In this document: piece by piece, positions 214 through 20,929 of the stretch
Numbering within the stretch: the first letter of the stretch is position 1
How the letters are laid out: each line of letters opens with the position of its first letter
NCBI GenBank assembly: GCA_044224495.1
Contig: JBGAKG010000027.1
Location: forward strand, 6,983 to 29,520
From: Polyangiaceae bacterium
GTDB lineage: Bacteria > Myxococcota_A > Polyangia > Polyangiales > Polyangiaceae
Direction: 5' to 3'
Length of the DNA stretch: 22,538 bases
Translations under genes and position numbers: made by a program
Notes under the pieces: model-generated
What the model saw: the letters and a program-made list of their open reading frames with translations, nothing else
Database searches by the model: none
What the model was told of the DNA's origin: nothing

Positions 214-936
214 TCACGGATCCTTCGGATCCCCGCCCCTCCGAAACACCTCACCACTCGGCCGAAACTCTACCGTTCCGCCCGGCAACGAAACGACGTC
301 CCCCACCCGGTACCCAAAATCCGCAATGCACCGCTCCTCGAACCCCGAGATCCGCGGGTTCGCGAAATAGAACGCCTGATCACGCGACGTGACGATCAGC
401 GCGCGCCCCATCCCGTACCGGAGCATGAACCGCCCCACGTCGCGGAGGTTCGTGTGCGAGTGCCGCGCGCACGGCTCGACCACGATCGCACTCTCCGGAA
501 TCCCGTGGTCGAGGAGGTACCGCCTCATCAGCACGGCCTCCACGTACGGCGTCCCCTCCGGGTGCACGTTCGCCCCCGACACGAGGATGACGGGCGCCGC
601 TCCGCCGCGGAAGAACGCCATCGCGGAGTCGAGCCGCGCTGCCGCGTTGGGGTGCACCTCCGGCGTCGGTGCCGTCGCATCGAGCGGCGTGAACCCCGGC
701 ACCACGATCGCGTCGAACTGGCCCGGCCCCACGGCGACCTTGCGCCCCGCGAGCGCCGCGATCGCGGCGGAGTTCTCCCGCGCCACGTCGACGCCGTTCC
801 CACTGCAGAGCGACCACTCGCCCACCTCGGGGTGGGGCACCAGCGCGGCGACCTCGCCGCCTCCCCCTCGCGTGGCGTGACCATGCCCACCGCAGGCGGC
901 GAGACCGAGCCCCAGAACGGCAACGAAACTTCGCAT
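214..936 (-). CDS. DUF218 (YdcF/SanA-like) domain lipoprotein
   Basis: The long ORF 214..1287 was trimmed to the ATG at 934-936 (cat on the + strand), which gives an N-terminus MRSFVAVLGLGLAACGG with a lipobox. The C-terminal region (VILVSGANVHPEGTPYVEAVLMRRYLLDHGIPESAIVVEPCARHSHTNLRDVGRF) matches the DUF218 architecture. The upstream extension is R/S-rich and probably spurious. Confidence 0.7.
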   Translation of the reverse strand: MRSFVAVLGLGLAACGGHGHATRGGGGEVAALVPHPEVGEWSLCSGNGVDVARENSAAIAALAGRKVAVGPGQFDAIVVPGFTPLDATAPTPEVHPNAAARLDSAMAFFRGGAAPVILVSGANVHPEGTPYVEAVLMRRYLLDHGIPESAIVVEPCARHSHTNLRDVGRFMLRYGMGRALIVTSRDQAFYFANPRISGFEERCIADFGYRVGDVVSLPGGTVEFRPSGEVFRRGGDPKDP

Positions 937-964
937 TCCCCGCCATGGTACATTCGATCGCGCC

Positions 965-2653
965 ATGACCGACGGCGATGACGCGACCGCGCTCCACCTC
1001 CGGAGACGAAGCGAGCCCCCGCCCGACGGTACGAGCCAAGCTCCGACTCGTCCGACGCCGACGCCCGTGCTCGGGATCGAGAACGTCCAGGCCATGGTCG
1101 AGGAGTTCCGCAAGCCTCCCGCCGAGCGCCAGGTCGTCGAGCGCCCGCTCGCCGCGGGCGGCATGGGCACCGTCGAGATCGTGATCGACCGCGCCCTCGG
1201 CCGGCGCATGGCCAAGAAGAGCATCCACGGCATCCTCTCCAGCGATCCGCGGATGCTGCGGATGTTCCTGCGCGAAGCCAGGACCACCGGGCTGCTCGAT
1301 CACCCGAACGTCGTCCCCGTCTACGACGTGGGCGAGCGCGACGGGCACTTGTATTTTACAATGAAGCTCGTCGAGGGGCGGACCCTCAAGGATCAGATCC
1401 GCGACCACGGCGGCGGCGGGAAGCCCGCGGACTACGGTCCGCTCGAGGCGAACGCCCTCTTCAACATGCTCGACGTCGTGGTGAAGATCTGCGACGCGCT
1501 CGCCTTCGCCCACGCGCGCCAGGTGATCCACTGCGACATCAAGCCGGCCAACGTGATGGTCGGAGACTTCGGCGAGGTCTACTTGATGGACTGGGGCATC
1601 GCGCGCCTCCAAGGCAGCGGCGGCCCCGCCGATCGCTCGTCCCAGCCCGACATCGATCCCAACGCCGACGAGCCCGCGCCTCCGAGCGGCGAGACGGGCG
1701 ATGCCGTCCTCGGCACCGCGAACTACATGTCGCCCGAGCAGGCCGAGGGCAGCCGCTTCCTCCTCGATCCGCGCAGCGACATCTTCAGCGTCGGCGCGAT
1801 GATCTACGAGATCCTCACCGGCCGTCCGCCGTACCGCGGCGAGTCGCACGGCGAGACGATCGAGCTCGCGCGCACCGCCACCTTCACGCCGCCGAGCGCG
1901 GTCGTCGGCGGCGCGCGGGTCCCGCCCGAGCTCGAGCGCATCGTGCTCAAGGCGATGGCGCGTCACCGCAGCGACCGCTACCCCGACATCGCCGCGCTCA
2001 AGGCCGACCTGCTGCGCTTCATGCGCGGAGGCGCCGAGTTCCCGCAGACGACGTTCAAGCGCGGCGCCGTCATCATGCGCGAGGGCGAGCAGGGGAAGTC
2101 CGCGTACATCATCGTCTCGGGCCGGGCCGAGGTGCGGAAGCAGATGGGCGGGCAGCTCCAGGTCCTCAAGACCCTGGGCGCGGGCGAGGTCTTCGGCGAG
2201 ATGGCGGTCCTCACCGAGGGACCCCGCACGGCGACCGTCGTCGCGATCGAGGACACGACCGTGCTCGTCGTCACCGACGAGGTGCTCCAACAGGAGCTCG
2301 TCCTCATGAAGCCGTGGCTCGCGCGGCTGGTCCAGGCGCTCGCCGAGCGCCTCCGCGATCTCTACACGACGAAGCGCGTCACCCTGACCGGCGGTCCGAC
2401 CGCTCCGCGTGTCGCGCTCCAGGTGGCGATGCACCTGATGCTCTTCGGCTCGCACGAGCCGAACGGCGCCCGCTCGCTCCGGTGGAGCACGCTCTCGAAG
2501 GAGATCGAGGCGCAGATGGGCGCGCCTCCCCACACGATCCACATGGTCGCGGCGCGCTATCGCGGTGTCACGCTCGACCTCGACGCCGACGTGATCACGG
2601 TCGCCGATCCGGCGGCGCTCGCGCAGATGGTCCGCGCCGATCTCGGCGGCTGA
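965..2653 (+). CDS. Hanks-type Ser/Thr protein kinase fused to a C-terminal cyclic-nucleotide-binding (cNMP) domain
   Basis: Kinase motifs: a Gly loop GGMGTV plus Lys in AKK, a catalytic loop HCDIKPANV, a DWG (DFG-like) motif and SPE. The cNMP domain has the phosphate-binding cassette FGEMAVLTEGPRTATVVA. The start is uncertain: GC3 is mixed between 965 and about 1060, and the GTG at 1067 or ATG at 1094 are in-frame alternatives. Confidence 0.85.
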   Translation: MTDGDDATALHLRRRSEPPPDGTSQAPTRPTPTPVLGIENVQAMVEEFRKPPAERQVVERPLAAGGMGTVEIVIDRALGRRMAKKSIHGILSSDPRMLRMFLREARTTGLLDHPNVVPVYDVGERDGHLYFTMKLVEGRTLKDQIRDHGGGGKPADYGPLEANALFNMLDVVVKICDALAFAHARQVIHCDIKPANVMVGDFGEVYLMDWGIARLQGSGGPADRSSQPDIDPNADEPAPPSGETGDAVLGTANYMSPEQAEGSRFLLDPRSDIFSVGAMIYEILTGRPPYRGESHGETIELARTATFTPPSAVVGGARVPPELERIVLKAMARHRSDRYPDIAALKADLLRFMRGGAEFPQTTFKRGAVIMREGEQGKSAYIIVSGRAEVRKQMGGQLQVLKTLGAGEVFGEMAVLTEGPRTATVVAIEDTTVLVVTDEVLQQELVLMKPWLARLVQALAERLRDLYTTKRVTLTGGPTAPRVALQVAMHLMLFGSHEPNGARSLRWSTLSKEIEAQMGAPPHTIHMVAARYRGVTLDLDADVITVADPAALAQMVRADLGG

Positions 2654-10716: not shown

Positions 10717-10738
10717 CGGTTGAGCCCCCGGTGTACGG

Positions 10739-10760
10739 CGCAAAGGTGATACCCTTTGCG
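10739..10760 (+). terminator. GC-rich hairpin (8-bp stem CGCAAAGG / CCTTTGCG, loop TGATAC) between two lipoprotein genes, with no U-tract
   Basis: Perfect inverted repeat read directly. It lies 23 nt after the stop at 10714-10716 and ends 2 nt before the GTG start at 10763. Confidence 0.4.
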
Positions 10761-10762
10761 TC

Positions 10763-12043
10763 GTGCGCCTCCGGGCCCTCACTGCACTGACGCTCGCGTC
10801 GCTGCCGATGGCAGCGGCGTTCCTCGTCGTGTGCAACGTCTACACGTCCGACTTGGTCGGCGGCACGGCTCCGCCCGACGCCGGGAGCGGCATCGGTTGG
10901 TGGTCCGGGCCCGCGGGCACGTGCTTCTCGGCGAAGATGCCGCGGCCCGAGGACCGGCCCGCCCCGCAGAGCGGAGGAACGACGGTCCCGCCGATCACGC
11001 TCGCGCTCGCGTCGATGCGCATCGGGTCGCTCGATCAGAACAACCAGTTCAACCAGCTCGCGTGGCAGGATCTCGGGCTCGACCTGGACGGCATCTGCAC
11101 GTCGTCGCCGACCTGCCCGGCCGATGCGCCGCAAGGCTCGTGCAAGGCGACGAAGGGCGCGGTCGCGTACGACGGCAACTACTGCCGGGACAACACGTTC
11201 GGTCGCCTCGAGGTCACGGCCGCCAACATCCAAGAGGTGGGCGGCAAGTACGGCCTCAACGACGACGCGTTCAACTGCGCGCTCTGCACCGGCGCGTACA
11301 ACTTCATCATCAAGATCTCGGGCTACAACGGGCTCGCGAACGACGACAAAATCCGGATCGACCTCTACCCCTCGCCCGGCCTCGAGTCGCCGCTCCCGTG
11401 GGATTGCTCGAAGAAGGATTGGCGCACGCACCCGTGCTTCACGTCGTTCCTCCCCTGGTACATCCGCGACACGGCGGTGGCGCAGCCGACGGGCGGTCCC
11501 GATCTCCCGGACGCGGTGCTCGCGGACGCGAACGCGTACGTGCGTGACGGCTACGTCGTCGGGCAGCTCCCGGCGAACGTGCTCTTCTGGTTCCCGTCGA
11601 TCGCGGGCCGCAAGGCGGACGTCGCCACGGCGTTCCCGCTCCGCATGACGTCGGGCGTGATCACGGGCCGCATCAAGAAGGCGGCCGACGGAACGTGGAG
11701 CGTCGAAGACGGCACGATCGCCGGGCGCGCCTCCTACACCGACGTGCTCCAGGGCTTCCGCCTCATCGGCTTCTGCGAGAGCGATCCGAACTTCCCGCTG
11801 ATGCAGACGTTCCTCGAGAGCAACCTCGACATCCTCGCCGACGGGAAGGTGGATCCGAACCGCACGTGCGATGCGATCTCGGTCGGCATCTCGTACACCG
11901 CGAGCGAGGCGACGGCCGGCAAGCTCATTCACGTCGACGACCTGAAGGAGTGTCCGCCCGCCGGGGACGGCGGCGTGGAGGGCGGAACGGACGCGGGGGA
12001 CGGCGGCAGCGACGCTGGCGTGACCGACGCCAAAGCGGACTGA
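10763..12043 (+). CDS. Hypothetical lipoprotein
   Basis: GTG start. Signal peptide MRLRALTALTLASLPMAAAFLVVC. Several cysteines. C-terminal DAG-rich tail GGVEGGTDAGDGGSDAGVTDAKAD. High GC3. Confidence 0.7.
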   Translation: MRLRALTALTLASLPMAAAFLVVCNVYTSDLVGGTAPPDAGSGIGWWSGPAGTCFSAKMPRPEDRPAPQSGGTTVPPITLALASMRIGSLDQNNQFNQLAWQDLGLDLDGICTSSPTCPADAPQGSCKATKGAVAYDGNYCRDNTFGRLEVTAANIQEVGGKYGLNDDAFNCALCTGAYNFIIKISGYNGLANDDKIRIDLYPSPGLESPLPWDCSKKDWRTHPCFTSFLPWYIRDTAVAQPTGGPDLPDAVLADANAYVRDGYVVGQLPANVLFWFPSIAGRKADVATAFPLRMTSGVITGRIKKAADGTWSVEDGTIAGRASYTDVLQGFRLIGFCESDPNFPLMQTFLESNLDILADGKVDPNRTCDAISVGISYTASEATAGKLIHVDDLKECPPAGDGGVEGGTDAGDGGSDAGVTDAKAD

Positions 12044-12093
12044 AAACCTCGGGGTTCGGCCAAAACTGGCCCCCTCCCCGGGCTTGAGGTAGC

Positions 12094-13461
12094 ATGGTTG
12101 CCTACATGCGCACCCTCCAGCGTTTTTCCCTCGCAGCGCTCGCGCTGATGGCGTGCACGACGATCGGCCGCGTGATCGTGTACCCGGCCCACACCGACAT
12201 GAAGAGCACGCCCGACATCGAGGGCACGGAGCTCGCGCCGACCAGCCTCGGCACCGAAAACTACAAGGGAGCGGCCCCCGGCTTCCACGCGGTGCGGAGC
12301 TCGGACGACTGGCTCTCGGTCTGGAAGGACCCGCGGCCCGACGCGCGCCACCCGCCGCCTCCGTCGGACGTGAGCTTCAAGGATCAGATGGTGCTCGCGG
12401 CGGTCGTCGACGATCCGAAGGTGACGGCGCTCGAGATCACGGCGGTGCGGCGCTCGCCGGATGGCGTGCACCTCTACGTGACCGAGTCGCTCGTGGGCGA
12501 TGGCTGCACCGCGCCGCCGGCGCGCGAGGAGCCGCTGATGGCGTTCGTGGCGGTGCCGCGCGTCGACGACGACGTGCACGTCCACCAGGATCGCATCCAC
12601 GATCCGCGCTGCAGCGGCGCGCCCGAGGCGAGGATCGCATGCCGCGTCGCGGGCTCCGGTCAGGCAGGGACCGACAAGATGAGCGGCGCGCCGGGCCAGA
12701 CGATCGACTGCGACGGAACGAAGAGCGCGGCGGTCGCGGGCGGAACGATCGTGGATCGCAACTGGTACCTCGAGACGTTGCCGCTCGGATCGACGACGCG
12801 TCTGACGGTGTCGAAGTCGACGCTGGGCGCGACGTTCCCGCTCGATGCGTGGGGCACCTACGTCGTGCGCCACGAAGTGAGCGACGACACGGGCAAGAGC
12901 GGGCGCGGCATCGCGACGATCGACGTGGCGCCGCCGGCGGGCTACGTGCCGATCGAGCTGGTGTGGTCGAAGTTCGATCGCAGCGACGATCCGACGACGT
13001 TCCCGCGCGTTCAGCTCCACGTGATCGAGCACCCGGCGCCGCTGGGCGATCGCACGCGCGATTGCTGGCTCGATGCGCCGAAGCCGGCGTGGTGCGAGAT
13101 CGCCGAGGTCGGCGTCACGCAGCAGCTGAAGCTCAAGCCGCAGCCGGGGAAGCGCTATCGGGTCGAGGTGAAGTACGTCGACGATCGCTTCAAGGGCGCG
13201 CCGGTCGCGTGCGTGCGAACGTTCGCGGCGGCGTCGGGCAACAAGCCGGTGGATCTGTGCGAGTACCCCGACACGGTGCGCAACGCGAACGCGGTGTGGT
13301 CCCTCGGAGCGATCGAACCGGACACCGGGACCTTCGGCGATCCGAACGCGAAGCCGGTGGCTCCGCCGAGCGACGCGGGTGCGCCCACCGACGGTGGTGC
13401 GGATGCGGTGGCGCCGGTGATGGCGGGCGACTCGGGCGTGGTGAAGAAGGCGCCGTTCTGA
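12094..13461 (+). CDS. Hypothetical lipoprotein
   Basis: N-terminus MVAYMRTLQRFSLAALALMACTT. An alternative ATG lies at 12106. GAGGT sits 3 nt upstream of 12094. C-terminal DAG-rich tail. Confidence 0.7.
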   Translation: MVAYMRTLQRFSLAALALMACTTIGRVIVYPAHTDMKSTPDIEGTELAPTSLGTENYKGAAPGFHAVRSSDDWLSVWKDPRPDARHPPPPSDVSFKDQMVLAAVVDDPKVTALEITAVRRSPDGVHLYVTESLVGDGCTAPPAREEPLMAFVAVPRVDDDVHVHQDRIHDPRCSGAPEARIACRVAGSGQAGTDKMSGAPGQTIDCDGTKSAAVAGGTIVDRNWYLETLPLGSTTRLTVSKSTLGATFPLDAWGTYVVRHEVSDDTGKSGRGIATIDVAPPAGYVPIELVWSKFDRSDDPTTFPRVQLHVIEHPAPLGDRTRDCWLDAPKPAWCEIAEVGVTQQLKLKPQPGKRYRVEVKYVDDRFKGAPVACVRTFAAASGNKPVDLCEYPDTVRNANAVWSLGAIEPDTGTFGDPNAKPVAPPSDAGAPTDGGADAVAPVMAGDSGVVKKAPF

Positions 13462-14135: not shown

Positions 14136-14172
14136 GCGCAGCGCTGGCTTCGTTCTTGCTGAGCCCCTCGAT

Positions 14173-14652
14173 ATGGACCGTGTTGCGTTCGACATTCGTC
14201 GCGCTGGGGTTGCCTACGCTGCTCGCGCCGCAAAGCTCCTTGGGCGCTGGAACTTCACGAACTCTCGCGTCGACGTGTTCGTGATTCATTCGAAGGTGCT
14301 CGCCCAGCACGGCGTCGTGCTCCAGACCGACTTGCGCGCGCGCCTCGGCATCTCGCGCTCGACCATGAGCCTCATGCTCACGCGTCTCGAGCGGCGCGGG
14401 TTCATCGAGCGACGCAGGGCCGAGCACGACCGCCGCAACATCGTCGTCATCATCACCGCGCTCGGTAGAGCGGTGTTCGACGAGCTGGTGTCGCGCGTCG
14501 GTCCGACGCTCTTCACGCCCTACGTCGACACCCAACTCTGGCTCCACGACCTGCGCACGAGCGTCGCGGTGCAGCGGGCACGCATCCTCCAGCACGTCGG
14601 CGCGATCCGCGAGTTGTTCGGCGACTCCTCGCGCGCACCCTACCCACCGTGA
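14173..14652 (+). CDS. MarR family transcriptional regulator
   Basis: Winged-helix signature LQTDLRARLGISRSTMSLMLTRLERRGFIERRRAEHDRRNIVVIITALG. The ATG at 14173 is in frame with ORF 13579..14652, whose upstream part is antisense to the lipoprotein gene and was rejected. Confidence 0.8.
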   Translation: MDRVAFDIRRAGVAYAARAAKLLGRWNFTNSRVDVFVIHSKVLAQHGVVLQTDLRARLGISRSTMSLMLTRLERRGFIERRRAEHDRRNIVVIITALGRAVFDELVSRVGPTLFTPYVDTQLWLHDLRTSVAVQRARILQHVGAIRELFGDSSRAPYPP

Positions 14653-14653
14653 C

Positions 14654-15523
14654 TCAGCGCTGCGCCGCGCGGATCGCTTTCTCTTCCTGACCCAGCGCGT
14701 GAATCACTTCGAGCGTCCGCTCGCTCACCCGCTTGAAGACCTTCGGGCTCCCCGGCTTCTCCAGGAGATCTCCGAAGTCCACCGGCGCCCCGAACACCAC
14801 GTTGATCGTCTCGCCCTTGCGCGTGAAGTTGCCCGCGACCTGCTTCGGCAGATCATTTCCCAATCCGTTGATGAACACCGGCAGCACCGGCACCCGCGCT
14901 TGGTGGATGATCCGGCCCACCCCGCTCTGCGCCGGCAGCAGCGTGTAGGGATCGTCGGTCTGGTTCCGCGTCCCTTCCGGGTGCAGCCCCACGAAGATCC
15001 CCGGACGCCGCAGGATGTTCGCCGTCTCGTCGAGGCTCGCGATGTTCAAGTGCGCCTGCTTCCGCTCCCGGAACACCGGCGGGTACATCGCGAAGAAGCT
15101 CATCACCCCGTTCACGAAGAAGCCGAGCGGCGCGTCGTAGAAGAAGTTCGAGCGCACCGGGAACAGGATCCGGTGCTTGAACCCCCGCTTCACCAGGTAC
15201 GCCGTGATCACGTACATGTCGAAGAAGCTGCGGTGGTTCGACACGCAGATGTAGCTCGACGACGGGTCGAGGTTCCCCAGCCGCTCCCGCCCGTGCACCT
15301 GCCGGATGTTGCGGGTGCAGAGCTCGATCCAGTTGCACCCGAACGTCCGCTGCCCGAACCGCAGCGCCCGGTTCAGGAGGTTCGGCTCCAGGCTCTTCTG
15401 AACGAACCGCACGTGCGCTCGCGTGATCGACGGCAGCTCGGGCGACAAGAGGTCGCCTGCCCGATCCTCCCGTGCCCCGCGGCCCGGCGCCGTCGGCGCA
15501 TTCGCTTTGATCTCGTGGTCCAT
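14654..15523 (-). CDS. Lysophospholipid (1-acyl-sn-glycerol-3-phosphate) acyltransferase, PlsC/LPLAT family
   Basis: HX4D motif NHRSFFD and PEGTR motif. The full ORF starts at ATG 15521-15523. Confidence 0.8.
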   Translation of the reverse strand: MDHEIKANAPTAPGRGAREDRAGDLLSPELPSITRAHVRFVQKSLEPNLLNRALRFGQRTFGCNWIELCTRNIRQVHGRERLGNLDPSSSYICVSNHRSFFDMYVITAYLVKRGFKHRILFPVRSNFFYDAPLGFFVNGVMSFFAMYPPVFRERKQAHLNIASLDETANILRRPGIFVGLHPEGTRNQTDDPYTLLPAQSGVGRIIHQARVPVLPVFINGLGNDLPKQVAGNFTRKGETINVVFGAPVDFGDLLEKPGSPKVFKRVSERTLEVIHALGQEEKAIRAAQR

Positions 15524-15558
15524 GGAGAGCGTGTATCCTCCGCGGCTAGGTTTCCCCC

Positions 15559-15978
15559 ATGGCGCACTGGCTGATCAAGAGTGAACCGTCCGTGTACCCC
15601 TTCTCGCAGCTCGAGAAGGAGCGATCGACCCGCTGGGACGGCATCCGCAGCTTCGAGGCGCGAAACAACCTACGCGCCATGAAGAAGGGCGAGCTCTGCC
15701 TGTTCTACCACTCCAACGACGGGAAGGAGATCGTCGGCGTCGCCCGCGTGAAGAAGACCGCCTACCCCGATCCGACCGCCAAAGCCGACGAAGGCGACTG
15801 GAGCGTCGTCGACGTGGAGTTCGTGAAGCCGTTCGCCACGCCCGTCGGCCTCGCCGCGATCAAGAAGAACAAGAAGCTCGCGACCATCTCGCTCGTCAAA
15901 CGCTCGCGCCTCTCGGTCGCGCCCATCACCGACGCGGAGCTCACCGAGGTGCTCGCGATGGGGAAAACCAAGCTCTGA
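15559..15978 (+). CDS. EVE domain (PUA-like) protein
   Basis: Classic EVE N-terminus MAHWLIKSEPSVYPFSQL, WDGIRSFEARNNLRAMKKGELCLFYHSN, about 139 aa. Confidence 0.8.
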   Translation: MAHWLIKSEPSVYPFSQLEKERSTRWDGIRSFEARNNLRAMKKGELCLFYHSNDGKEIVGVARVKKTAYPDPTAKADEGDWSVVDVEFVKPFATPVGLAAIKKNKKLATISLVKRSRLSVAPITDAELTEVLAMGKTKL

Positions 15979-16002
15979 CCCTGCTCACGAAAGGCAACGC
16001 CC

Positions 16003-17682
16003 ATGGCCGAGGTCGACAAGATCATCGACATGCTCGAGGACGAGAGCATCGAAAAGCGCATCGCCGCCGCCATCGTGCTCGGCGAGCTCAAGGTGAAGAA
16101 GCCCGAGGCCCAAGAAGGCTTCCTCAAGCTCCTCCACAGCGGCGTCCCCGTCCTCCAACGCCACGGGCTCGAAGGCCTCACCCGCATCGGCGCCGCCAAG
16201 AAGGCGCTCAAGACGACCTTCCCGCTCCTCACCAGCTCCGTCGAAGACGTGCGCCGCGCCGCGGCCGCCGCCGTCCGCAGCGTCGGCGAAGACGTCGTCC
16301 CCATGATCCGCGCGCGCATGGGCGAAGCCCTCCCCGAGGAGCGCCGCGTGCTCGACGGCATCCTCGCCGAGCTCGGCGGGAAGGATGCATTCTCCACGCT
16401 TCTCGCCAGCCTAACTTCGAGCGAGGGCGAAGCCGCCAAGGCCGCCGCGCTCGCGGTTCGCCAACACGTGAAGGACGCCGGCGCCCGCGAGCGAAAGAGC
16501 TACCGCGCCGCGACCGAGAAGTTCCTCGAGTCGCAGAAGAAGACCAAGCTCAACCCCGGCGGTTCTCCGACGGCCATCGCCGCCGCGATCAAGATCCTCG
16601 GCTACCTCGAGGACGACGAAGCGCTCCCCACCCTCCTCGCCTACGCGACCAGCAAGGACGCACCCGCCGTCGTCAAGCAAGAGGCCCTCATCGCGATGCG
16701 CTTCGCGCTCGGTGACGCCAAGGGCAGCGTCAAGGTCATCAACGCCCTCGTCGACGCCGCCGAAGGCGCCGATCGCTCGCTCGCGCACACCGCGCTCCAC
16801 ACGCTCGGCTCACTCGAGGTCCCCGCGTCCGCGATGACGCGCTTCGAGAAGCTCCTCGCCCACGTCGACATCGAACGCGCCCGCTTCGCCGCCGCCTACC
16901 TCGCCGGACAGAAATCGCCGGCCGCGCTGAAGGCGCTCATCGGCGTCATCACCGACTCCCCCGAGCGCCGCCGCGCCGAGCTCGTCGCCGAGCTCCTGAA
17001 CACGCGCGAAGACGCCGCCGGCGCCCTGACCGACGCGCTCCTCGAGACCAAGGACCCCGACCGCGCGTGGCTCATCCGCAAGATCGTCGGCCAACCCTCG
17101 TTCGCCAAGAAGCTCCCACCCAAGGTCCGCAAGGAGCTCCTCGAGACCGGGCTCAAGCGGCTCGAGAAGGGCGACCGCAACTGGGAGCCGATGCTCGACG
17201 TCGTTCAGGTCGCCGATCCCGAGACGTATGCCGACGCGCTGCGCACCTTGTCGCAGAAGCTGCGCCGCAACGGGAACGACGAGAAGGCGCAGACCGTCCT
17301 CGGCCTCCTCCTCCGCTGCGAGAAGGCGACCGACGCCGATCGCTTCGCCCTCGCCGTGATCGAGCTCAAGAAGAGCAAGAAGGACACCCGTCCCGCCATT
17401 CGCAACGGCGACGGTGCTCTTCATCGCCTGAGCGGCCTGCTCGCGCGCGGCTTCGATCTGGCGAGCTCGCTCAAGAAGGAGCGTACGCTCGAGCTCGACG
17501 ACCTCTACTACGTCGGCTTCCACTTCACCGAGCTGGGTGTCGGAGGAGGCGGGGGCGGGGGTGGCGCTGCCGCACGGGCGGGGGACGTGGGGGAAGAGCT
17601 GCTCCAGCACGTGGTCGACAAAGGCGGCCGGACCAAGGTGGGGAAAGCCGCGAAGAACAAGTTGGAGCTCTCGAGCGCTTGA
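16003..17682 (+). CDS. HEAT/PBS-lyase repeat protein with a C-terminal poly-Gly tract
   Basis: Repeated helical units (EKRIAAAIVLGEL, VRRAAAAAVRSVG, ALIAMRFALGD). GAAAGG SD 8 nt upstream. GVGGGGGGGGAAARAGD encoded at about 17536-17570. Confidence 0.7.
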   Translation: MAEVDKIIDMLEDESIEKRIAAAIVLGELKVKKPEAQEGFLKLLHSGVPVLQRHGLEGLTRIGAAKKALKTTFPLLTSSVEDVRRAAAAAVRSVGEDVVPMIRARMGEALPEERRVLDGILAELGGKDAFSTLLASLTSSEGEAAKAAALAVRQHVKDAGARERKSYRAATEKFLESQKKTKLNPGGSPTAIAAAIKILGYLEDDEALPTLLAYATSKDAPAVVKQEALIAMRFALGDAKGSVKVINALVDAAEGADRSLAHTALHTLGSLEVPASAMTRFEKLLAHVDIERARFAAAYLAGQKSPAALKALIGVITDSPERRRAELVAELLNTREDAAGALTDALLETKDPDRAWLIRKIVGQPSFAKKLPPKVRKELLETGLKRLEKGDRNWEPMLDVVQVADPETYADALRTLSQKLRRNGNDEKAQTVLGLLLRCEKATDADRFALAVIELKKSKKDTRPAIRNGDGALHRLSGLLARGFDLASSLKKERTLELDDLYYVGFHFTELGVGGGGGGGGAAARAGDVGEELLQHVVDKGGRTKVGKAAKNKLELSSA

Positions 17683-17712
17683 CGGACCCGGTTCTGCTTG
17701 AAATCATGAAGG

Positions 17713-18630
17713 GTGGTGCCGGACGACGACGACGATCTGGAGAAGACCAACGTCACCCACAGCGGTGAGTTGGTCCGTGAGCTCCTCGCGAAATCGCAGC
17801 GAGATCGCGCGTATCTGATCGTCCTTCAGGGCTCCAACGTCGGCGAGATGTACCGCCTCGACGGGGGCGAGAGCGTCATCGGCCGCGCGTCCACCGCCCA
17901 CATCAAGCTCGGGGACGACGGCGTCTCCCGCAAGCACGCCCGCGTCGTCGTCGACGGCGCGGCGGTTCGGATCGAAGACCTCGGCAGCTCGAACGGCACG
18001 CTCGTCAACGGCGCCAAGGTCGACATGCAGCAGCTGCGGGACGGCGACAAAATCCAGATCGGCTCGACCACCGTCCTCAAGTTCACGTACCACGACAAGC
18101 TCGAGGAGAGCTTCCAGCGCCAGATGTACGACGCGGCGCTGCGCGACGGCCTCACCAAGGCCTACAACAAGAAGCACTTCACGCACCGGCTCGAGACCGA
18201 GTTCGCGTACGCGAAGCGCCACGCGAGCGCGCTCTCGCTCCTCATGTTCGACGTCGATCACTTCAAGCGGATCAACGACACGTTCGGCCACCTCGCCGGC
18301 GACTACGTCCTCTCGCGCCTCGCGCAGGTCGCGCAGGGCACGCTCCGCACCGAAGACCTCTTCGCCCGCTACGGCGGCGAAGAGTTCGCGATCCTCTGCC
18401 GCGGCGTTCCGCTCGCGAGCGCCGCCATCCTCGGCGAGCGCATCCGCGGGCTCGTTCAGACCACCAACTTCGTCTTCGAGACGCGCGAGATCCCGGTCAC
18501 CGTCAGCGTCGGCGTGGCCGCGATGCCGGAGCTCAGCATCGAGCAGCCCCTCGAGCTCGTGGGCTGCGCGGACGAAGCGCTCTACGAAGCCAAGCGCACC
18601 GGCCGCAACCGCGTGTGCCTGAAGCGCTGA
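17713..18630 (+). CDS. FHA domain - GGDEF diguanylate cyclase (GGEEF active site, RxxD I-site)
   Basis: FHA: SRKHARVVVDGAAVRIEDLGSSNGTLVNG. GGDEF: DHFKRINDTFGH, RTEDLFARYGGEEF, ALYEAKRTGRN. The GTG start at 17713 lies immediately after an in-frame TGA, so the exact start is uncertain. Confidence 0.8.
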   Translation: MVPDDDDDLEKTNVTHSGELVRELLAKSQRDRAYLIVLQGSNVGEMYRLDGGESVIGRASTAHIKLGDDGVSRKHARVVVDGAAVRIEDLGSSNGTLVNGAKVDMQQLRDGDKIQIGSTTVLKFTYHDKLEESFQRQMYDAALRDGLTKAYNKKHFTHRLETEFAYAKRHASALSLLMFDVDHFKRINDTFGHLAGDYVLSRLAQVAQGTLRTEDLFARYGGEEFAILCRGVPLASAAILGERIRGLVQTTNFVFETREIPVTVSVGVAAMPELSIEQPLELVGCADEALYEAKRTGRNRVCLKR

Positions 18631-18633
18631 GCC

Positions 18634-19425
18634 CTACATCTTCACCTTCATCCCGGGCGCCTGAATCATCGAGTAGTCGGTGATCGGCGTGCCCGAGATG
18701 TCGAGCAGCTTGAGCTTCTTCAACGTCTTCAGCGGCGACAGGTCCTTCACCGCGGTGTTCGCGAGCGACAGCTTCTCGAGCTTGGTGAAGCCCGCGATGA
18801 CGCTCACGTCGGTGATCGGCGTCGCATCGATCGAGAGCTCGGTGAGGTCGACCATCGCGCGAATCGGTTCGAGATCGCGAACTTCGGTGTGCGAGATGTC
18901 GAGGCGATCCATGTGGATCAGCCCGTGGATCGGCTTCAGGTCGACGAGCTTCACGTAGTTCACGACGAGCGTCATCATCTGCGTCTGCGTCGAGATCGGG
19001 GTGAGGTCCGTCAGGTCGCCGTTGCGGACGAAGAGGTCCTTCAGCCCGGTGAGCTTGGGGAACACGCACGGGTTGAGCTCGTCGGTCGGCGTCGTCGACA
19101 GGTTGATCGACTTCACCTTCGGGAGCTCCGACGTGAGGATGTCGCCGGTCGGCTTCTGGAGCTTCACGCGGACCTGCGCTTCGAGCGCGGAGTCGCCCTC
19201 GAAGTCGACCTTCACGTTCTGCGTGCAGTGCCATTCCTTCTTTGGCTTCGGCGGCGGCTCGGACGGCGTGCTCGACGCGGGCGGCGGTGGCGTGACCGCC
19301 ACGCTCGTCGCCGCGGTCGCGCTGGCCGACGTGCCGGACTTGGTGTCCTTCGGATCGTCGCAGGCGACGGTCGCGAGGAGCATGCACGCGGGGAGAAGAA
19401 CCGGGGCAAAACGGAGCGCCTTCAT
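18634..19425 (-). CDS. Leucine-rich repeat (internalin-like) lipoprotein
   Basis: C-terminal 263 aa of ORF 18634..19881. The ATG at 19423-19425 gives MKALRFAPVLLPACMLLATVACDD. Pro-rich linker followed by LRR units (LTDLTPIS, LVDLKPIHGL, LTELSIDATPITDVSVIAGF, LEKLSLANTAVKDLSPLKTLKKLKLLDISGTPITD). Confidence 0.7.
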   Translation of the reverse strand: MKALRFAPVLLPACMLLATVACDDPKDTKSGTSASATAATSVAVTPPPPASSTPSEPPPKPKKEWHCTQNVKVDFEGDSALEAQVRVKLQKPTGDILTSELPKVKSINLSTTPTDELNPCVFPKLTGLKDLFVRNGDLTDLTPISTQTQMMTLVVNYVKLVDLKPIHGLIHMDRLDISHTEVRDLEPIRAMVDLTELSIDATPITDVSVIAGFTKLEKLSLANTAVKDLSPLKTLKKLKLLDISGTPITDYSMIQAPGMKVKM

Positions 19426-19498
19426 GGGCCCGAAGGATAGGCGCCGAGGTCCGGAGAGAGCAATCGCTTCGACGCGGGCCGGTGCGTAGGATGGGGGC

Positions 19499-19864
19499 AT
19501 GACCAACCGCTCCAAGCTCGCCGAACGCATCGGGCTCGCCGCTGCGTCCGCCTTCCTCGTGGCCGTCATCCTCGCCTGCAAGGCCCCCGTCCAACCCGAG
19601 GCGACCGTCGTCTGCACGGGCGAGACGGAGGACATCAGCTGCGTCCTGACCCACGTCGCGGGGACCACCGCGATCAAGGCCTGCTGGGACCTGCAGTTCG
19701 ACTGCAAGAACGGCACGTCGGTGAAGGGCACGAACTTCTGCGAGACGGTGCAGCCGAAATCGACCTCCACGAAGAAGATCCCGCTCAAGGACCTCACGAA
19801 CTTCGACAAGTGCGACAAGGCCACCGGCAGCAAGGTGGAGAACCTCGCGCTCACCGCGATGTGA
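19499..19864 (+). CDS. Small Cys-rich lipoprotein (8 Cys)
   Basis: Lipobox VAVILAC. Mature part about 95 aa with paired cysteines. High GC3. 15 nt upstream of the next gene. Confidence 0.6.
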   Translation: MTNRSKLAERIGLAAASAFLVAVILACKAPVQPEATVVCTGETEDISCVLTHVAGTTAIKACWDLQFDCKNGTSVKGTNFCETVQPKSTSTKKIPLKDLTNFDKCDKATGSKVENLALTAM

Positions 19865-19879
19865 GCACCTGAGGCTGCC

Positions 19880-20929
19880 ATGACCTTCGGCTACGACGAC
19901 TTCGGTGCTGTCGCCCAGCGGCTGCACTTTCGGATCGATCCGCCCGAGAAGCACCTCCTCGCCGCCGAGCACTCCATCGACGGAGTGCTCGACGGGGTCC
20001 ACGTCTACGTCCGCCAGTGGCAGGGCCAATGGGTCCACGTGGAGTTCACCGCCTGGCTCACCCCGGCGCTCGATCTGCGCTTGCTCATCGAGCGCGAGAG
20101 CGTGGGGGCGAAGCTCGGTCACCTCGTCGGCCGGCACGACATCGAGATCGGCGATCCCGAGCTCGATCGCGCATGGAAGATCAAGGCGGACGAGCCCGAG
20201 CGCGCCAAGGCCCTCTTCACGCCCGCGGTCCGCGCCGCGATGCTCGGCTGGAAGAAGTCCGGCGTGCCCCTCCGCATCACCGACGAGACCGTCTCGTTCT
20301 GGGTCACGCCCGGCGCGTACTCGACGCTGTCGCAGCCCGTGCTCGAGCAAGACATCCGGGCCGCGGTCGGCCTGGTCACCGCGCTCGCCGCGGCGACACC
20401 GAACGTCCCGAGCTCGACGCTGTTCGCGGAGTACGTCGAAGCGTGGCGCGCCTACGCGACGGCGCGCGGGCTCGAGCTCACGGCTTCGCCGCTCCGGGTC
20501 AGCGGGCGCCTCGACGGCTCGCCGTTCACTGCGCGCGCGGTCGCGACGGACGAACGGCGGTGGGGCGTCGACGTGCACCTCGCGTTCGACGAGCCCCTCC
20601 CGTTCGCGCTCCGCGTGCGGCCGAAGCGGTTCTTCGATTTCATGGTGCTGAGCGGCGAGCCCCCGCACCTCGAGCTCGGGGATCCCGCGTTCGACGGCGA
20701 GCTCCGGACGAGCACGACCGAGCCGCCGAAGGCGAAGGCGTTCCTCGACGAAGGCGTGCGGCGCGCGCTCCTCGAGCTCCACGCGACCGCCGGTGACGTT
20801 CAGCTCGACGAGCGCGGCCTCGCCGTTCGCACGAAGACGATGACCGATCCCGAGACGTTCGGCCGCATCGCCGAGCGCGTCGCTCTCGTCGCGCGGAAGC
20901 TGCACGAGCGCGCGGGACCGTATCGCTGA
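19880..20929 (+). CDS. Hypothetical protein built from two tandem homologous halves
   Basis: GAGG SD 5 nt upstream. The halves align: IEIGDPELDRAWKIKADEPERAKALFTPAVRAAML with LELGDPAFDGELRTSTTEPPKAKAFLDEGVRRALL, and GVLDGVHVYVRQWQ..W with GRLDGSPFTARAVATDERRW. Confidence 0.65.
   Translation: MTFGYDDFGAVAQRLHFRIDPPEKHLLAAEHSIDGVLDGVHVYVRQWQGQWVHVEFTAWLTPALDLRLLIERESVGAKLGHLVGRHDIEIGDPELDRAWKIKADEPERAKALFTPAVRAAMLGWKKSGVPLRITDETVSFWVTPGAYSTLSQPVLEQDIRAAVGLVTALAAATPNVPSSTLFAEYVEAWRAYATARGLELTASPLRVSGRLDGSPFTARAVATDERRWGVDVHLAFDEPLPFALRVRPKRFFDFMVLSGEPPHLELGDPAFDGELRTSTTEPPKAKAFLDEGVRRALLELHATAGDVQLDERGLAVRTKTMTDPETFGRIAERVALVARKLHERAGPYR

Follow-up and report, generated by a model that had tools for sequence, protein, structure and literature searches.

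We analysed a 22,538-nt (22.5-kb) stretch from the genome of a Polyangiaceae bacterium (assembly GCA_044224495.1, contig JBGAKG010000027.1, positions 6,983 to 29,520; hereafter "the window"), focusing on three consecutive plus-strand genes that encode an EVE domain protein, a HEAT-repeat protein and an FHA-GGDEF protein predicted to synthesize cyclic di-GMP (c-di-GMP). A first-pass annotation had read these genes as a single operon and, possibly, as a new signalling module. From their gene content, motifs, distribution among relatives and conserved promoter-like elements, we consider it somewhat more probable than not that the locus comprises two units, namely an EVE-HEAT bicistron and an independently promoted gene of the dgcB type, which was relocated beside the pair in one subclade of the Polyangiaceae. 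Among the genes of this region, only EVE and HEAT appear to behave like an operon.

The EVE gene (15559-15978) encodes a stand-alone EVE (PUA-like) domain protein of 139 aa, the HEAT gene (16003-17682) an all-alpha HEAT-repeat solenoid of 559 aa, and the cyclase gene (17713-18630) a DgcB-like FHA-GGDEF protein of 305 aa when read from the GTG at 17713. Third-position GC content of 0.90-0.94 in all three open reading frames (ORFs) marks the coding frame. The domain identities originally assigned to these genes were all confirmed by Pfam, and the reported gaps of 24 nt between EVE and HEAT and 30 nt between HEAT and the cyclase were recovered from the sequence. The second gap widens to 33 nt if translation of the cyclase begins at GTG 17716, which is probably the true start (304 aa), because the N-termini of homologues begin with "MP..". 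The protein collection searched contained 100% identical matches to the window HEAT and cyclase proteins (P0001 and P0121, respectively), while the closest EVE match was 88% identical.

To place the locus in an evolutionary context we used approximately 90 related genome pieces, in which L-numbers denote loci and P-numbers proteins. These included 80 HEAT loci, scanned with one genome per species, from the Polyangiaceae, Labilithrix, the Sandaracinaceae and more distant Myxococcota. Neighbours of HEAT were counted from tblastn and hidden Markov model (HMM) searches of these loci, and only loci with enough flanking sequence were included, giving 67 evaluable species-level loci for EVE adjacency and for the full trio, and 73 for cyclase adjacency. 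Neighbouring genes were called from the difference between third- and second-position GC content, a crude criterion by which some genes were missed; a clustering of stop-to-stop ORFs around HEAT was dropped, having been dominated by antisense shadow ORFs, as is usual in DNA of 70% GC.

EVE was found beside HEAT in 11 of the 67 evaluable loci and the cyclase beside (downstream of) HEAT in 8 of 73; the full trio occurs in 8 of 67, and also in L087. A neighbour-joining tree of HEAT proteins resolved the EVE-linked loci as one clade and the cyclase-linked loci as one subclade nested within it. The cyclase subclade also keeps an unrelated acyltransferase gene upstream and, in most of its loci, a leucine-rich repeat (LRR) protein gene downstream; since these unrelated flanks are kept too, the conservation of the trio is what plain synteny would give. 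The gene order is therefore conserved outside this genome, as the first-pass annotation had proposed to check, but within a single nested clade that has retained its flanks as well. Elsewhere in the EVE-linked clade the third position is variable. In L085 and L086 (5001-8095), the divergent acyltransferase gene is followed by EVE and HEAT and then, 3 nt later and in the place of the cyclase, by a gene for a TrkA_N/TrkA_C-gated K+ channel (Ion_trans_2), and EVE-HEAT was present with no cyclase detected in L007, and likewise in L004 and L006 on short contigs. In L012 the order of the pair itself is reversed, with HEAT preceding EVE across a 1-nt gap. Approximately 56 of the 67 evaluable HEAT loci have neither EVE nor the cyclase beside them, the neighbours in other HEAT clades being a secreted protein gene together with a purple-acid-phosphatase-like gene, or an HlyD-type, ECF sigma factor or FGE-sulfatase-like gene. 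HMM searches for divergent EVE, FHA or GGDEF domains in the 80 loci identified no hidden EVE or FHA-GGDEF gene next to HEAT outside the clade.

The context of the cyclase gene in other lineages provides a second line of evidence. More than 7,000 relatives were retrieved in the protein search, and copy number was assessed from the best 120, all of them FHA-GGDEF proteins of approximately 305 aa from Polyangia with 63-100% identity. Orthologues at 65-90% identity occur across the Polyangia. For four orthologues outside the window clade, from Polyangium aurulentum, Sorangium sp. So ce542, a Minicystis metagenome-assembled genome and a metagenome lineage, a Metallophos_2 phosphatase gene precedes the cyclase on the same strand, the Minicystis product being short and its match faint (L081 5239-6936, L082 5102-6933, L083 5661-6909 and L088 4256-5936). 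In three of these four lineages Metallophos_2 is directly preceded by a GlnE gene in divergent orientation, and in Minicystis a short GlnE-domain gene lies farther away. No HEAT or EVE gene was found near any of the four, and the window genes that were scanned included no Metallophos gene. The cyclases of these pairs (P0190, P0206, P0236 and P0168) are equal in length to that of the window, 64-67% identical to it and alike in their tail, FHA and GGDEF motifs; the difference lies in the upstream neighbour, which is the Metallophos_2 gene there and the HEAT gene in the window subclade. This pairing agrees with the calcineurin-like phosphatase gene, bd0740, reported within the dgcB operon of Bdellovibrio (PMC6733907), and from gene context it looks like a conserved partnership of the cyclase family, though a contextual rather than a defining one. 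Each multi-megabase contig of the window clade occurs only once among the best 120 cyclase matches. This single occurrence favours the relocation of a single-copy gene, and weakly suggests that the window cyclase is not a duplicated paralogue.

The junctions between the genes divide the locus at the same point. Over 12 loci the EVE-HEAT junction ranges from -8 to +24 nt, with mostly 4- or 8-nt start/stop overlaps, a pattern typical of translational coupling; the 24-nt gap of the window holds a GAAAGG Shine-Dalgarno-like sequence. We regard EVE-HEAT as operon-like on account of these overlapping or very short junctions and of the linkage that persists after the swap in L012. The start codons of the EVE gene and the divergent acyltransferase gene (14654-15523, minus strand; PF01553, Pfam E = 9e-18) are 35 nt apart (15524-15558), and the space between them contains a -10-like element on the plus strand, GTGTATCCT (15531-15539, with TATCCT at 15534-15539), 19 nt before the EVE start codon. 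In 13 sequences of the clade either GTGTATCCT or TGTATGCT, with small variants, is conserved 7-19 nt upstream of the EVE ATG, and in most relatives the ATG lies 7-9 nt past the TATCCT-like element. We regard GTGTATCCT as a candidate -10 element of a putative promoter for the EVE-HEAT unit, and the spacing suggests that EVE transcripts may be leaderless in most relatives, and that their promoter elements may lie within the coding sequence of the adjacent gene.

A different pattern precedes the cyclase. A sigma-70-like element, CTTGACG-N17-AATCAT (17678-17707, plus strand), overlaps the stop codon of HEAT and lies immediately ahead of the cyclase start. The spacer between HEAT and the cyclase varies from approximately 30 to approximately 125 nt across the subclade, yet CTTGACG-N16/17-xAxxAT is found in 10 of 10 loci, comprising an invariant CTTGACG, 16-17 unconserved bases, and a hexamer in which A2, A5 and T6 are invariant (AATCAT, AATGAT, AACCAT, AAAGAT, CACGAT and similar). 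Conservation of this heptamer and of these hexamer positions is as expected for a sigma-70-type promoter. This element is the sole consensus promoter match in 14500-19500, and the composite pattern occurs once in the window against an expectation of 0.02. Over approximately 1 Mb of fetched loci the pattern yielded 24 matches, of which 12 lie upstream of the cyclase, 9 upstream of one other conserved gene in a Labilithrix-type clade, and 3 elsewhere. The 12 cyclase-upstream matches include two in the Metallophos_2 context (L088 and L089), and at the equivalent site in Sorangium (L082) we found CTTGAAC-N17-GATCAT. As a similar CTTGAC-N17-xAxxAT element precedes the cyclase in the Metallophos_2 context (L082, L088) and in the window subclade, the gene seems to be accompanied by its own promoter in every setting. 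In 7 of the 10 subclade loci the start codon falls 2-9 nt past the -10 hexamer, which suggests a leaderless or nearly leaderless cyclase mRNA there, while longer leaders are found in L001, L003 and L087. The ATG inside the -10-like element was considered as an alternative cyclase start and rejected, since it does not share the cyclase reading frame in the window (ATG 17706) or in L005, L008 and L009.

These junctions bear on the proposed three-gene operon in both directions: the genes share a strand, have short gaps and show no terminator-like site between them, and the conserved promoter-like element inside the presumed transcript argues for a separate start at the cyclase. The first-pass annotation had itself named independent promoters, in transcript data, as a reason to abandon the operon, and the candidate found before the cyclase would be such a promoter, as judged here from sequence conservation and not from transcripts.

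At the protein level, the window cyclase belongs by sequence to the DgcB-type FHA-GGDEF diguanylate cyclases, and we predict that it has the corresponding activity. Pfam identified an FHA domain (E = 5e-19, residues 55-117) and a GGDEF domain (E = 2e-45, residues 142-300; also TIGR00254; 18136-18612), and both domains align with the structure of DgcB (Bd0742) from Bdellovibrio bacteriovorus (PDB 6HBZ; E = 2e-54, residues 41-302). As described by Meek et al. 2019 (PMC6733907; PDB 6HBZ, 6HC0 and 6HC1), the FHA domain of DgcB binds the protein's own N-terminal tail, L-E-K-pT14-S-I-V, and the structures, together with an engineered tail-bound and constitutively active variant, support the activation of c-di-GMP synthesis by phosphorylation of the tail; the same study attributed feedback inhibition to an RxxD I-site and noted orthologues of DgcB in myxobacteria.

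The window protein carries sequence counterparts of these features. Its tail motif, L9-E-K-T12-N-V14 (17737-17754), is identical to that of DgcB in L-E-K-T at positions -3 to 0, also has a hydrophobic residue at +2, and provides a candidate phospho-acceptor for the protein's own FHA domain (residues 37-120; 17821-18072). In an alignment of 17 orthologues with 64-88% identity (A2), the invariant residues include D7, E10 and T12 of the tail as well as G57-R58, S72-R73-x-H75 and S92-x-N94-G95 of FHA; V14 reaches at least 90% conservation. Residues R58, S72, R73, H75, S93 and N94 align with the DgcB residues R61, S75/R76 and T96/N97, and all of these window residues except S93 are among the invariant positions, such that the phosphate-binding Arg, Ser and Asn of DgcB are kept. 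The GGDEF domain retains the A-site G221-G-E-E-F225 (18373-18387) and the I-site R212-x-x-D215 (18346-18357), both reported by the first-pass annotation and both invariant in the 17 orthologues, as are D180/D182, N188 and the guanine-specifying D197. Three differences from DgcB were also identified. The window cyclase and its orthologues have Thr, Ser or Ala at tail position +3 in place of Val; K72 of DgcB corresponds to an invariant Asp (D69); and the gene follows EVE-HEAT rather than lying beside a calcineurin-like phosphatase gene. By analogy with DgcB, the conversion of a kinase mark into c-di-GMP is well founded for the window cyclase. The earlier suggestion that the protein couples Ser/Thr phosphorylation to c-di-GMP synthesis is thus supported by this likeness, as an instance of a mechanism already published for DgcB (PMC6733907) and not a new one.

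Single-domain architecture characterizes the EVE protein, which matches PF01878 over its full length (E = 8e-41, profile positions 1-145 of 145) and has as its structural relatives 2GBS (E = 1.6e-32), 1ZCE, 2EVE and THYN1. The same full-length, single-domain form is found in the known stand-alone EVE proteins PSPTO5229 (2EVE), Rpa0253 (2GBS), Atu2648 (1ZCE) and human THYN1. A survey of EVE genomic contexts described a ZapAB-ssrS-(FAU1)-EVE arrangement in beta- and gamma-proteobacteria, and PlsB/TesB-type genes, including PlsB-type acyltransferases, in the Pseudoalteromonadaceae (PMC7641849); neither HEAT nor GGDEF is mentioned in that survey. In contrast to the surveyed contexts, the window EVE gene faces away from a neighbouring PF01553 acyltransferase gene and is coupled to the HEAT gene. 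The EVE orthologue of the cultured Pendulispora albinea has no HEAT neighbour. An EVE-based, modification-dependent restriction or defence system was considered and rejected: the EVE protein stands alone at 139 aa, and its gene is flanked by those of an acyltransferase and a HEAT protein, with no nuclease, McrBC-type GTPase or other defence effector fused or adjacent to it. PADLOC returned no match for EVE or the cyclase, and a weak OloA match for HEAT (E = 7e-5, 20 bits) was set aside as repeat-level similarity.

By sequence, the HEAT protein is a member of a conserved family of approximately 540 aa that is found in the Polyangia and other Myxococcota and is widespread in the former. We retrieved more than 544 full-length homologues at 52-100% identity; at E ≤ 1e-30 and a 50% identity cut-off the family falls into 279 clusters, and nearly every full-length member listed spans 535-560 aa and aligns end to end. 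Pfam assigned HEAT_2 (E = 7e-17), with no family covering the C-terminal half, and an alignment of 23 family members (A1) identified the invariant motifs YYVGFHF, DTRP and a C-terminal KNKL. The AlphaFold2 model consists entirely of helices, with a predicted local distance difference test score (pLDDT) of 88, and a Foldseek search with this model returned generic HEAT/ARM scaffolds only (probability 1.0, TM-scores 0.2-0.5). The same all-alpha repeat fold occurs in generic solenoids such as the PP2A A subunit, importin-beta and the designed alphaRep proteins, and neither Foldseek nor the sequence searches identified a specific relative of known function that might provide a functional lead. The Gly8 tract highlighted in the first-pass annotation is real (residues 514-521; 17542-17565) and falls within a loop of low model confidence (pLDDT < 50 at residues 516-519). 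The insertion bearing it is limited, among the 23 aligned sequences, to the window and its two closest relatives (P0002 and P0004), and by this alignment it is a lineage-specific low-complexity insertion, with no place among the family-wide features. No fused EVE, FHA or GGDEF domain was identified in the seven HEAT representatives of greater than usual length that we scanned; P0498, P0494, P0399, P0364 and P0491 show HEAT-type repeats only or no Pfam match, with an extra weak, sub-threshold ERAP1_C match in P0364.

Together, these observations are consistent with the following model. The first unit would be the EVE-HEAT bicistron, probably read from the conserved -10-like element within the 35 nt that separate it from the acyltransferase gene and translationally coupled in most relatives, in which EVE, by its family annotation, may read modified nucleic-acid bases and the HEAT protein is a conserved alpha-solenoid protein found throughout the Polyangia. 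The second would be the dgcB-type gene, transcribed from its own putative sigma-70-like promoter with a very short or absent leader. For the cyclase we infer a phospho-switch analogous to that of Bdellovibrio DgcB: a Ser/Thr kinase would phosphorylate Thr12 of the tail D-L-E-K-T-N-V, the phosphorylated tail would dock on FHA and bring two GGDEF domains into a productive dimer, and the c-di-GMP so formed would feed back through the RxxD I-site. In the ancestor of the subclade, a dgcB-like gene may have moved with its promoter to a position downstream of EVE-HEAT, away from its usual Metallophos_2 neighbour. The adjacency of the two units would thus reflect a lineage-specific rearrangement, in which read-through from the first unit into the second is possible but not required.

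Several observations weigh against this model or soften it. Adjacency of the trio persists to approximately 50-57% HEAT protein identity, and its retention over such divergence could reflect selection and not inertia alone. The survival of EVE-HEAT linkage through the order swap in L012 hints at a functional link between these two proteins. No terminator-like site was found on the plus strand between the EVE, HEAT and cyclase genes, so that the cyclase may also be co-transcribed by read-through from HEAT, and the activity of the putative promoters is itself predicted from their sequence. Relocation in place of duplication is likewise presumed, from searches of the protein collection and of individual loci, and the window cyclase is a putative orthologue of its relatives elsewhere that may yet be a paralogue. 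Finally, HEAT lies beside c-di-GMP enzymes in a second, independent setting. In a distant clade with 45-46% identity (L056 3394-8176, L057 1493-6031, L060 9-12378 and L063 1529-10551), the HEAT gene is placed between a REC-PAS-PAS-GGDEF-EAL gene and a CHASE4-HAMP-PAS hybrid histidine kinase gene, the latter overlapping the HEAT stop codon by 4 nt, with a further GGDEF gene approximately 3 kb downstream.

This last arrangement raises the possibility that EVE and HEAT form a true functional pair in which the HEAT family acts as a signalling scaffold recurrently associated with c-di-GMP enzymes, the cyclase being a looser, lineage-specific client. The overlapping or very short EVE-HEAT junctions and the linkage retained in L012 are what such a pair would predict, as are GGDEF-type neighbours of different architectures in two unrelated HEAT clades; by a rough estimate with an assumed frequency of GGDEF genes, chance would seldom produce two such adjacencies among approximately a dozen different neighbourhoods. 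Chance adjacency is, however, inflated in myxobacterial genomes by their wealth of signalling genes, EVE adjacency is confined to one clade, the Pendulispora EVE orthologue lacks a HEAT neighbour, and other HEAT clades adjoin the secreted phosphatase-like, HlyD, ECF sigma factor or FGE-sulfatase-like genes described above. Given also that the structure search yielded only generic solenoids, we consider this explanation unlikely.

It is also unlikely, in our estimation, that the locus reflects pure synteny, with three functionally unrelated products of which EVE and HEAT merely share a transcript. Such an explanation would accommodate the high variability of HEAT neighbourhoods, the occurrence of EVE as a widespread stand-alone protein in many contexts, and the conservation of the acyltransferase flank to the same degree as the trio, with the LRR gene following in most subclade loci. 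Against it stand the start/stop overlaps, which suggest translational coupling of EVE and HEAT, and the continued adjacency of the two genes after the rearrangement in L012.

A more elaborate proposal, which we regard as quite improbable, treats EVE and HEAT as a true two-protein module of a Polyangiaceae clade, in which a reader of modified nucleic acid would be bound to a scaffold, and the HEAT family as a scaffold that recruits, according to lineage, a DgcB-type cyclase, a TrkA K+ channel, or a GGDEF-EAL protein together with a hybrid kinase. If true, such a module would tie the modification state of nucleic acids to c-di-GMP or ion signalling. Least probable of all, and in our view a long shot, is the single co-transcribed sensory module, in which EVE would sense modified nucleic acid, HEAT would act as a scaffold and the cyclase would convert this signal and a kinase input into c-di-GMP: strand, gap lengths, the lack of a terminator and an order kept in eight species-level genomes and L087 over the divergence noted above speak for it, but it is confined to one nested clade that keeps unrelated flanks as well, gives way in a sister lineage to an arrangement with a K+ channel gene at the cyclase position, involves a cyclase that pairs with Metallophos_2 elsewhere, contains a conserved promoter-like element belonging to the cyclase, leaves most evaluable HEAT loci without either partner, lacks any domain fusion among the longer HEAT proteins scanned, and finds no mention of HEAT or GGDEF in the survey of EVE contexts. 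The claim of a new EVE, HEAT and FHA-cyclase module is accordingly weakly supported, its presumed partners being variable outside this clade.

With two units remaining the favoured interpretation, the first consequence is corrective, in that gene order by itself is no basis for listing EVE, HEAT and FHA-cyclase genes as a new signalling module. DgcB-type phospho-tail cyclases with an L-E-K-T-like tail are highly conserved and apparently single-copy across the sampled Polyangia, and their usual pairing with Metallophos_2 lends further weight to the model of a kinase/phosphatase switch put forward for Bdellovibrio. The HEAT family of approximately 540 aa, widespread in Polyangia, is coupled to EVE in one clade, a pairing absent from the survey of EVE contexts (PMC7641849). 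Furthermore, CTTGAC-N17-xATGAT elements represent candidate strong promoters, some of them apparently leaderless, for the poorly studied Polyangia. A related observation concerns Labilithrix-type genomes, where CTTGACC-N16/17-ATGAT precedes a conserved gene of approximately 187 aa without a Pfam match (cluster c3), located downstream of HEAT (L018 8923-8951, L021 5462-5490, L024 7784-7812, L027 7688-7716, L030 8996-9024, L033 8429-8457, L034 8951-8979, L053 8294-8322 and L023 11183-11211). The recurrence of these sequences suggests that Polyangia share a general consensus for strong promoters.

Turning to the surroundings of the locus, the acyltransferase gene, a flank outside the unit, lies upstream of and divergent from EVE in the clade loci whose contig extends that far. 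On the other side, the LRR protein gene (18634-19881, minus strand; LRR_4, E = 1e-15), also a flank outside the unit, is convergent with the cyclase and lies 3 nt past its stop codon. LRR homologues were identified downstream in L001, L002, L005, L008, L009, L049 and L065, immediately after the cyclase in L001, L002, L009 and L049. An Rfam search of the window identified nothing, and a repeat search returned matches at the level of codon bias only. At 881-2653 (plus strand), the window also encodes a Ser/Thr protein kinase (Pkinase, E = 1e-32) fused to a domain that binds cyclic nucleotides (cNMP_binding, E = 2e-22), probably the kinase that the first-pass annotation had in mind as a partner for the cyclase; the two genes are 15 kb apart and nothing connects them. 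Between 13579 and 14652 (plus strand) lies a long ORF whose MarR-type winged helix is confined to the last ~120 residues; the real gene there is probably a short MarR regulator (approximately 14150-14652), with the N-terminal part representing high-GC ORF noise. Also upstream in the window are two conserved proteins of approximately 440-460 aa without a Pfam match, c1 (10724-12043) and c7 (12088-13461, plus strand), which look secreted from their N-termini as judged by eye. Such neighbours also occur upstream of HEAT in loci of the range L014-L068. The c1 gene is the most widely shared neighbour of HEAT (24 loci), lying several genes upstream and co-oriented in the window clade, and directly divergent from HEAT in the Labilithrix-type clade.

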